Assembly: GCF_045037415.1 (NCBI RefSeq)
Contig: NZ_CP173438.1
DNA: 64,000 bases
From: Escherichia coli
GTDB lineage: Bacteria; Pseudomonadota; Gammaproteobacteria; Enterobacterales; Enterobacteriaceae
Reading direction: 5' to 3' (one strand)
The stretch's first letter is position 1, and each line of letters starts with the position of its first letter. Under the pieces are notes generated by a model that worked only from the letters and a program-made list of their open reading frames with translations, was not told where the DNA came from and ran no database searches. Made by a program: the position numbers and the translations under genes. Positions 20,194-20,367 of the stretch are shown here, one piece after another.

Positions 20194-20207
20194 TTGATGT
20201 AAAACAA
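20194..20207 (+). promoter_or_regulatory. Upstream FNR/CRP-family site (TTGAT-N4-AACAA) of grcA
   Basis: TTGATGTAAAACAA; centre lies 53 bp upstream of the perfect FNR site, matching the -93.5/-40.5 two-site architecture reported for yfiD/grcA. Confidence 0.6.
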
Positions 20208-20246
20208 TAAAATCCATTTGTGACCACACTTGATATGTGGTTTTTA

Positions 20247-20260
20247 TTGATTTAAATCAA
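20247..20260 (+). promoter_or_regulatory. Consensus FNR box (TTGAT-N4-ATCAA) of the grcA promoter
   Basis: Perfect palindrome TTGATTTAAATCAA about 110 bp upstream of the grcA ATG. Confidence 0.8.
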
Positions 20261-20367
20261 AGAATCAAGGGTGTTTGAGGAGTATATATACACTCAAGCA
20301 ACAATGGTTTTACCAATTGGCCGCGACAGGCTGAACAAATCAAATAATTTTGCCGGGGAGGCATCAC

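Follow-up and report, generated by a model that had tools for sequence, protein, structure and literature searches.

Tandem FNR boxes of the Escherichia coli grcA (yfiD) promoter and their conservation across Enterobacterales

Promoter elements in the ung/grcA intergenic region

The 64-kb stretch of Escherichia coli chromosome analysed here (64,000 nucleotides, hereafter the window) contains the intergenic region between the divergent genes ung and grcA (yfiD). A 901-base query from this region matched several complete E. coli genomes at 100% identity, and both genes are annotated in them (RefSeq). The features of the locus are as follows, with the kind of evidence in parentheses.

19374..20063, minus strand: ung, the divergent neighbour, which shares the intergenic region (ORF; RefSeq and K-12 annotation)
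20194..20207, plus strand: distal FNR box (FNR II), centred at -93.5, the weaker, damping site (sequence, PWM)
20208..20246, no strand: spacer between the boxes, 39 bp, fixed in length and variable in sequence (cross-species comparison)
20247..20260, plus strand: proximal FNR box (FNR I), centred at -40.5, the class II activating site, overlapping the -35 region (sequence, PWM)
20283..20288, plus strand: -10 element TATATA (cross-species profile, E. coli alleles)
20284..20315, plus strand: ArcA binding region of K-12 with three direct-repeat elements (Park 2013 supplement)
20294, plus strand: literature-based transcription start, +1 (Park 2013 coordinates)
20304..20319, plus strand: PdhR-like palindrome AATGGTTTTACCAATT, +11 to +26 (read in the sequence)
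20368..20751, plus strand: grcA coding sequence, 127 aa, the regulated gene (ORF; RefSeq annotation of the 100% identical genomes; K-12 annotation)
20772..20799, plus strand: intrinsic terminator of grcA (12-bp stem with 7 GC pairs, followed by a T-run)

Two FNR boxes were located upstream of grcA by direct reading and by pattern search. The proximal box, TTGATTTAAATCAA, matches TTGAT-N4-ATCAA without a mismatch, and the distal box, TTGATGTAAAACAA, carries a single mismatch, A for T at box position 11, which turns its second arm into AACAA. The box centres lie at 20253.5 and 20200.5, giving a separation of 53 bp. A preliminary description of this DNA had reported a perfect box, an imperfect upstream box, and this centre-to-centre spacing, all of which we read in the same way.

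Sites matching TTGAT-N4-ATCAA with at most one mismatch are more frequent in the window than expected, with 7 sites compared with 2.2 ± 1.5 in shuffled sequences, none of which reached 7. For a graded score, we used a symmetric position weight matrix (PWM) derived from 61 ChIP-bound FNR sites in Table S6 of Myers 2013, from which the two yfiD sites were excluded. The proximal box scored 21.3 bits and the distal box 16.0 bits, ranking first and third in the window, respectively. In 200 first-order Markov simulations of 64 kb each, the mean number of sites per simulated window was 0 for the proximal score and 0.195 for the distal one, and two such sites spaced 20–120 bp apart were found in none of the 200. 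The sites ranking second and fourth are 14-mers that also appear in Table S6 of Myers 2013, at glyA/hmp and rluD/bamD, indicating that the present scan reproduces the published one. The second, TTGATGTATCTCAA, at 50852..50865, is located 28–41 bp upstream of a minus-strand ORF of 396 aa and opposite a plus-strand ORF of 419 aa; Table S6 lists it as not ChIP-bound and as overlapping Fis enrichment. The fourth, TTGACTTTCCTCAA, at 745..758, is the same as the rluD/bamD site, which is also listed as not ChIP-bound.

The geometry around the proximal box is that of a class II promoter. TATATA begins 29.5 bp downstream of the centre of FNR I, as in class II promoters, and this -10 element shows strong conservation in a cross-species profile anchored on the proximal box and does not vary among 13 E. 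coli alleles. The proximal box ends at 20260, or about -34, and overlaps a poor -35 region, in agreement with the sigma70-dependent class II promoters of the CRP/FNR family. A scan for the sigma70 consensus, which is uninformative for an activator-dependent promoter, found no consensus -35/-10 pair, and the absence of such a pair fits activator dependence. The transcription start was transferred from K-12 coordinates. The base at 20294 is T, an unusual start base, and 20295 fits the -10 element equally well, which would place the boxes at -41.5 and -94.5.

Other sequences in the region were also considered. The near-perfect palindrome AATGGTTTTACCAATT lies just past the start, overlaps the published ArcA region and is moderately conserved in the anchored profile, more weakly than the boxes and the -10 element. 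Judging from its GGT-N3-ACC core, it is a putative PdhR site. A half-match to it, AATTGGT, is present at 20165..20171. Upstream of the distal box, an A/T-rich block (20141..20170), whose composition is moderately conserved across species, could be an IHF site, a Fis site or the ung promoter. Between the boxes, a terminator-like hairpin (20222..20242) and a third TTGAT at 20230 were rejected as functional parts, as neither is conserved across species; many E. coli alleles also carry changes in them, such as TCGAT in place of TTGAT. An Rfam scan of 19900..20900 at E ≤ 1 found no RNA element that accounts for the boxes, its sole match, to SorY at the grcA terminator, being below threshold (18 bits versus a gathering score of 111).

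Correspondence with the K-12 yfiD promoter

The intergenic region differs from that of K-12 MG1655 at 13 positions, including 20184, 20186, 20221, 20227, 20235 and 20264, while both boxes, their 53-bp spacing, the -10 element, the 5' UTR and the gene are identical. The stretch from 20194 to 20315 aligns without gaps, window position w corresponding to U00096.2 coordinate 2734839 - w. The Park 2013 supplement places an ArcA site at 2714524-2714555, or -10/+22, and the sequence given there, TGGTAAAACCATTGTTGCTTGAGTGTATATAT, is the reverse complement of window 20284..20315. It follows that +1 is 2714545, which is window position 20294, and that the boxes are centred at -40.5 and -93.5. These are the positions of FNR I and FNR II reported for the K-12 yfiD promoter (Green, Baldwin & Richardson 1998; Marshall et al. 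2001), bearing out the -40.5/-93.5 architecture that the preliminary description had ascribed to yfiD/grcA.

The two boxes can also be found in published genome-wide data. Table S6 of Myers 2013 lists two PatSer-predicted FNR sites labelled yfiD/ung, 2714579 and 2714632, both at an FNR ChIP-seq peak. The former is the proximal box TTGATTTAAATCAA, with a score of 17.25 that is the highest among the Table S6 entries we examined, and the latter is the distal box (TTGTTTTACATCAA on the opposite strand), with a score of 13.87. The centre of the ChIP-chip and ChIP-seq peak, given as 2714605 in the main table and as 2714607 in Table S5, maps to approximately 20233, between the boxes; ChIP-seq cannot separate sites that are 53 bp apart. 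In the same study, yfiD is recorded as directly activated by FNR from the -40.5 site (main table), as activated in the wild type relative to an fnr deletion strain (Table S8), and as having an aerobic/anaerobic ratio of 0.11, which is approximately 9-fold higher expression anaerobically (Table S12). Both FNR sites are listed as overlapping IHF ChIP-chip enrichment (Table S6). A sigma70 ChIP-seq peak at 2714546 (Table S2) corresponds to window position 20293, one base from +1. This peak is placed under 'Aerobic' among the peaks with changed occupancy, despite the higher anaerobic level of grcA mRNA; the ung promoter may contribute to it.

The functions of the two sites have been described in K-12. 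The proximal site activates transcription, the distal site damps it in full anaerobiosis, and expression is maximal in low oxygen (Green 1998; Marshall 2001; a 2023 reporter study). The upstream site is reported to downregulate the promoter even with the activating site filled, which agrees with the earlier statement that it tempers activation. In the 2023 reporter study, the wild-type promoter was weak in full anaerobiosis and more active in low oxygen, and variants with a mutated (yfiD-m) or deleted (yfiD-P1) FNR II were much stronger. [quoted passage not shown] The AR1 face of FNR has been implicated in the effect of the distal site (Green 1998), and the literature describes the step by which the distal dimer lowers activity as unknown. 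The published regulators of yfiD are ArcA (+), FNR (+/-) and PdhR (-). PdhR is reported to repress the gene, and ArcA activates it mainly by disrupting FNR binding (Park 2013), so other proteins modulate the simple two-site picture. Matrix-based site prediction, ChIP-seq and mutation of the upstream site, the three checks that had been suggested for this locus, are thus already available in the literature, and all three agree. The boxes are the known tandem FNR sites of the E. coli grcA (yfiD) promoter; their identification from the sequence was correct and the sites themselves were already known.

Conservation of the two-box layout

Within E. coli, 5398 of 5426 complete genomes carry an unaltered 28-base core around the distal box. 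A 30-nt megablast query for the proximal box matched 4538 genomes, a shortfall that reflects flanking SNPs breaking the 28-base word (20261 A/G and 20237 G/A) and not mutations in the box. Thirteen alleles sampled across the range of identity share exact copies of both boxes at a spacing of 53 bp. A 115-bp stretch of these alleles contains 15 polymorphic columns, none of which coincides with any of the 28 box positions (hypergeometric P = 0.011), and most polymorphisms lie in the spacer (20208..20246).

The grcA promoter is unusually polymorphic in E. coli, with identity over 64 bases (within 20208..20275) falling to approximately 90% (L082-L092). The variants are concentrated in the spacer and immediately 3' of the proximal box (20261 A/G, 20264 A/T and 20273-20274), and none occurs in the boxes or the -10 element. 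One allele, L082 (NZ_CP026085.1, labelled DH5alpha), shows 6 differences from the window in these 64 bases. It also departs from K-12 MG1655 at several positions, a surprising result for a K-12 derivative that may point to an error in the strain label or in the assembly.

To extend the comparison beyond E. coli, a GrcA protein scan with one genome per species yielded 80 loci from Enterobacterales and Pasteurellaceae. With the pair counted as kept when each box had at most two mismatches, it was found in 61 Enterobacterales species, at a spacing of 53 bp in 55 of them and 52 bp in the other 6. Mean pairwise identity is 0.44 in the 39-bp spacer, as opposed to 0.87 and 0.88 for the two boxes (53 species), and in an ungapped profile anchored on the proximal box the two boxes and the -10 element stand out as islands of conservation. 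The difference in strength between the boxes is conserved as well. The proximal box scores higher than the distal box in 60 of the 61 species and is a perfect consensus in 35, whereas the distal box is perfect in none and its second arm is usually AACAA or AACAT.

The grcA loci of Pasteurellaceae (L045, L048, L052, L055, L060, L066 and L073) are without the 53-bp pair. They have two FNR-like boxes 42–44 bp apart, of which the upstream one is usually the stronger, about 85–140 bp upstream of the grcA ATG (locus position 2501). Downstream of the boxes lie a conserved TTGA-N5-TCAA and a block, TTTGATAAAAT, which resembles a -35 plus an extended -10 element.

This comparative pattern appears to be new, as we found no description of it in the literature searched, and it extends a known mechanism rather than revealing a new one. 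The layout of a strong proximal box, a weak distal box and a five-turn (53-bp) separation may be under purifying selection across Enterobacterales, with a 42–44 bp pair taking its place in Pasteurellaceae, and the low-oxygen peak of GrcA may accordingly be an ancient selected trait. We regard this evolutionary reading, taken as a whole, as evenly poised between right and wrong.

Role of the distal box and relation to other tandem promoters

We are highly confident in the overall explanation that the two boxes are the published FNR sites of the E. coli grcA (yfiD) promoter. The sites, their scores and spacing, the class II geometry, the identity with K-12 and the conserved strong/weak hierarchy were observed in the present analysis, and the occupancy, activation, damping and low-oxygen maximum are taken from the literature on K-12; nothing in the sequence contradicts the two-site explanation. 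According to this explanation, in the absence of oxygen an FNR dimer on the proximal box, at -40.5 and overlapping the -35 region, recruits RNA polymerase as a class II activator. As the level of active FNR rises, a second dimer would fill the weaker distal box, which at -93.5 lies exactly five helical turns further upstream, and the output would drop, so that expression of GrcA, a repair protein for pyruvate formate-lyase, would be highest in low oxygen and not in strict anaerobiosis. The difference in affinity would set the order of filling, the distal box being filled only at high levels of active FNR, and this late filling would turn an anaerobic switch into a band-pass, a behaviour that the conservation pattern fits.

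Four other readings of the distal box were weighed against this explanation. It is improbable that the box is a composite element, whose imperfect arm (AACAA, reverse complement TTGTT) and flanks are kept for a protein that competes with FNR, such as ArcA acting as an anti-repressor or IHF, the weak FNR match being a by-product and not a selected feature. Most species have A at box position 11, and conservation extends beyond the FNR core to the TAA in the spacer of the box and to the AA flanking it. The disruption of FNR binding by ArcA (Park 2013) and the IHF enrichment over both sites (Myers 2013) point in the same direction. However, the ArcA site mapped by ChIP-seq, at -10/+22, is away from the distal box (Park 2013), neither a clear ArcA direct repeat nor an IHF consensus could be seen over the box by eye, and FNR sites themselves prefer T/A in the spacer, as seen in the Table S6 site list. 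Such a composite element would supplement the two-site explanation as a possible extra layer and would not replace it.

A second reading, that the distal box is part of the divergent ung promoter and regulates ung rather than grcA, is very unlikely. The two genes share the intergenic region, the box is 137.5 bp upstream of the ung start codon in the window, and the peak is labelled yfiD/ung in Myers 2013. Given that ung is divergent from grcA in nearly all of the 80 loci, synteny could not assign the distal box to either gene, and variation in distance was used instead. Across species, the separation of the distal box from the ung ATG takes 28 distinct values between 90.5 and 299.5 bp, and the grcA ATG lies anywhere between 83.5 and 159.5 bp from the proximal box, while the two boxes remain 53 or 52 bp apart. 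Insertions and deletions are therefore tolerated everywhere except between the boxes, which ties the distal box to the grcA promoter and not to ung. In addition, ung (b2580) is missing from all tables of FNR- or oxygen-regulated genes in Myers 2013, and mutating or deleting the distal box alters the output of the grcA promoter (2023 reporter study).

We give still less credence to the possibility that the distal dimer is a co-activator, acting in a class I-like synergy rather than as a damper. In synthetic tandem promoters, activation survives upstream-bound FNR at many positions (Barnard 2003), and a 53-bp spacing places both dimers on the same helical face. In the same promoters, however, repression is strong when the upstream site lies between -85 and -95, and the anaerobic activity of yfiD is higher without the distal site (Green 1998; Marshall 2001; 2023 reporter data). 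Finally, although its mismatch sits in a key arm and about two single-mismatch sites per 64 kb are expected by chance, the view that the distal box is a chance half-match or a decaying relic without function conflicts with its PWM rank of 3 and the lack of any such pair in the simulated windows. This view is refuted by the retention of the box at a fixed distance in 61 species while the spacer drifts to 44% identity, by its integrity in E. coli (5398 or more of 5426 genomes), and by the effect of its mutagenesis (2023 reporter study).

The two-site explanation carries little weight as a discovery. A single transcription factor activating and damping the same promoter is a textbook-level case, here with the outcome that GrcA, which repairs oxygen-damaged pyruvate formate-lyase, reaches its maximum in low oxygen. 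The locus illustrates that a real regulatory architecture can be recognised from raw sequence. The cross-species data lend modest support to the published model, as the hierarchy of site strength and the five-turn spacing are conserved and the intervening sequence is free to change.

The closest known system is the K-12 yfiD promoter, which is the same locus and from which the window differs only by strain-level polymorphisms outside the functional elements. FNR also acts as a repressor, for example at the cydA and ndh promoters. The regulatory regions of cydA, ompW and ydfZ likewise contain two predicted, ChIP-associated FNR boxes each, the pair starting 52 bp apart at cydA and 45 bp apart at ompW (Myers 2013 Table S6), but the positions relative to the transcription start and the outcomes differ from those at yfiD, which the literature describes as an activated promoter with a second, damping site. 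The melR-based synthetic tandem-FNR promoters of Barnard, Green & Busby (2003) are alike in having a consensus site near -41.5 and a second site upstream, and their zone of strong repression, -85 to -95, is the zone in which the grcA distal box is located. These promoters are artificial and both of their sites are consensus, whereas the distal site of grcA is naturally weaker and this weakness is conserved. In tandem-CRP promoters (Lee & Busby 2012), an upstream activator of the CRP/FNR family similarly suppresses activation by the proximal dimer in a position-dependent manner; this repression operates through the alpha C-terminal domain, which is stated to be uninvolved at yfiD.
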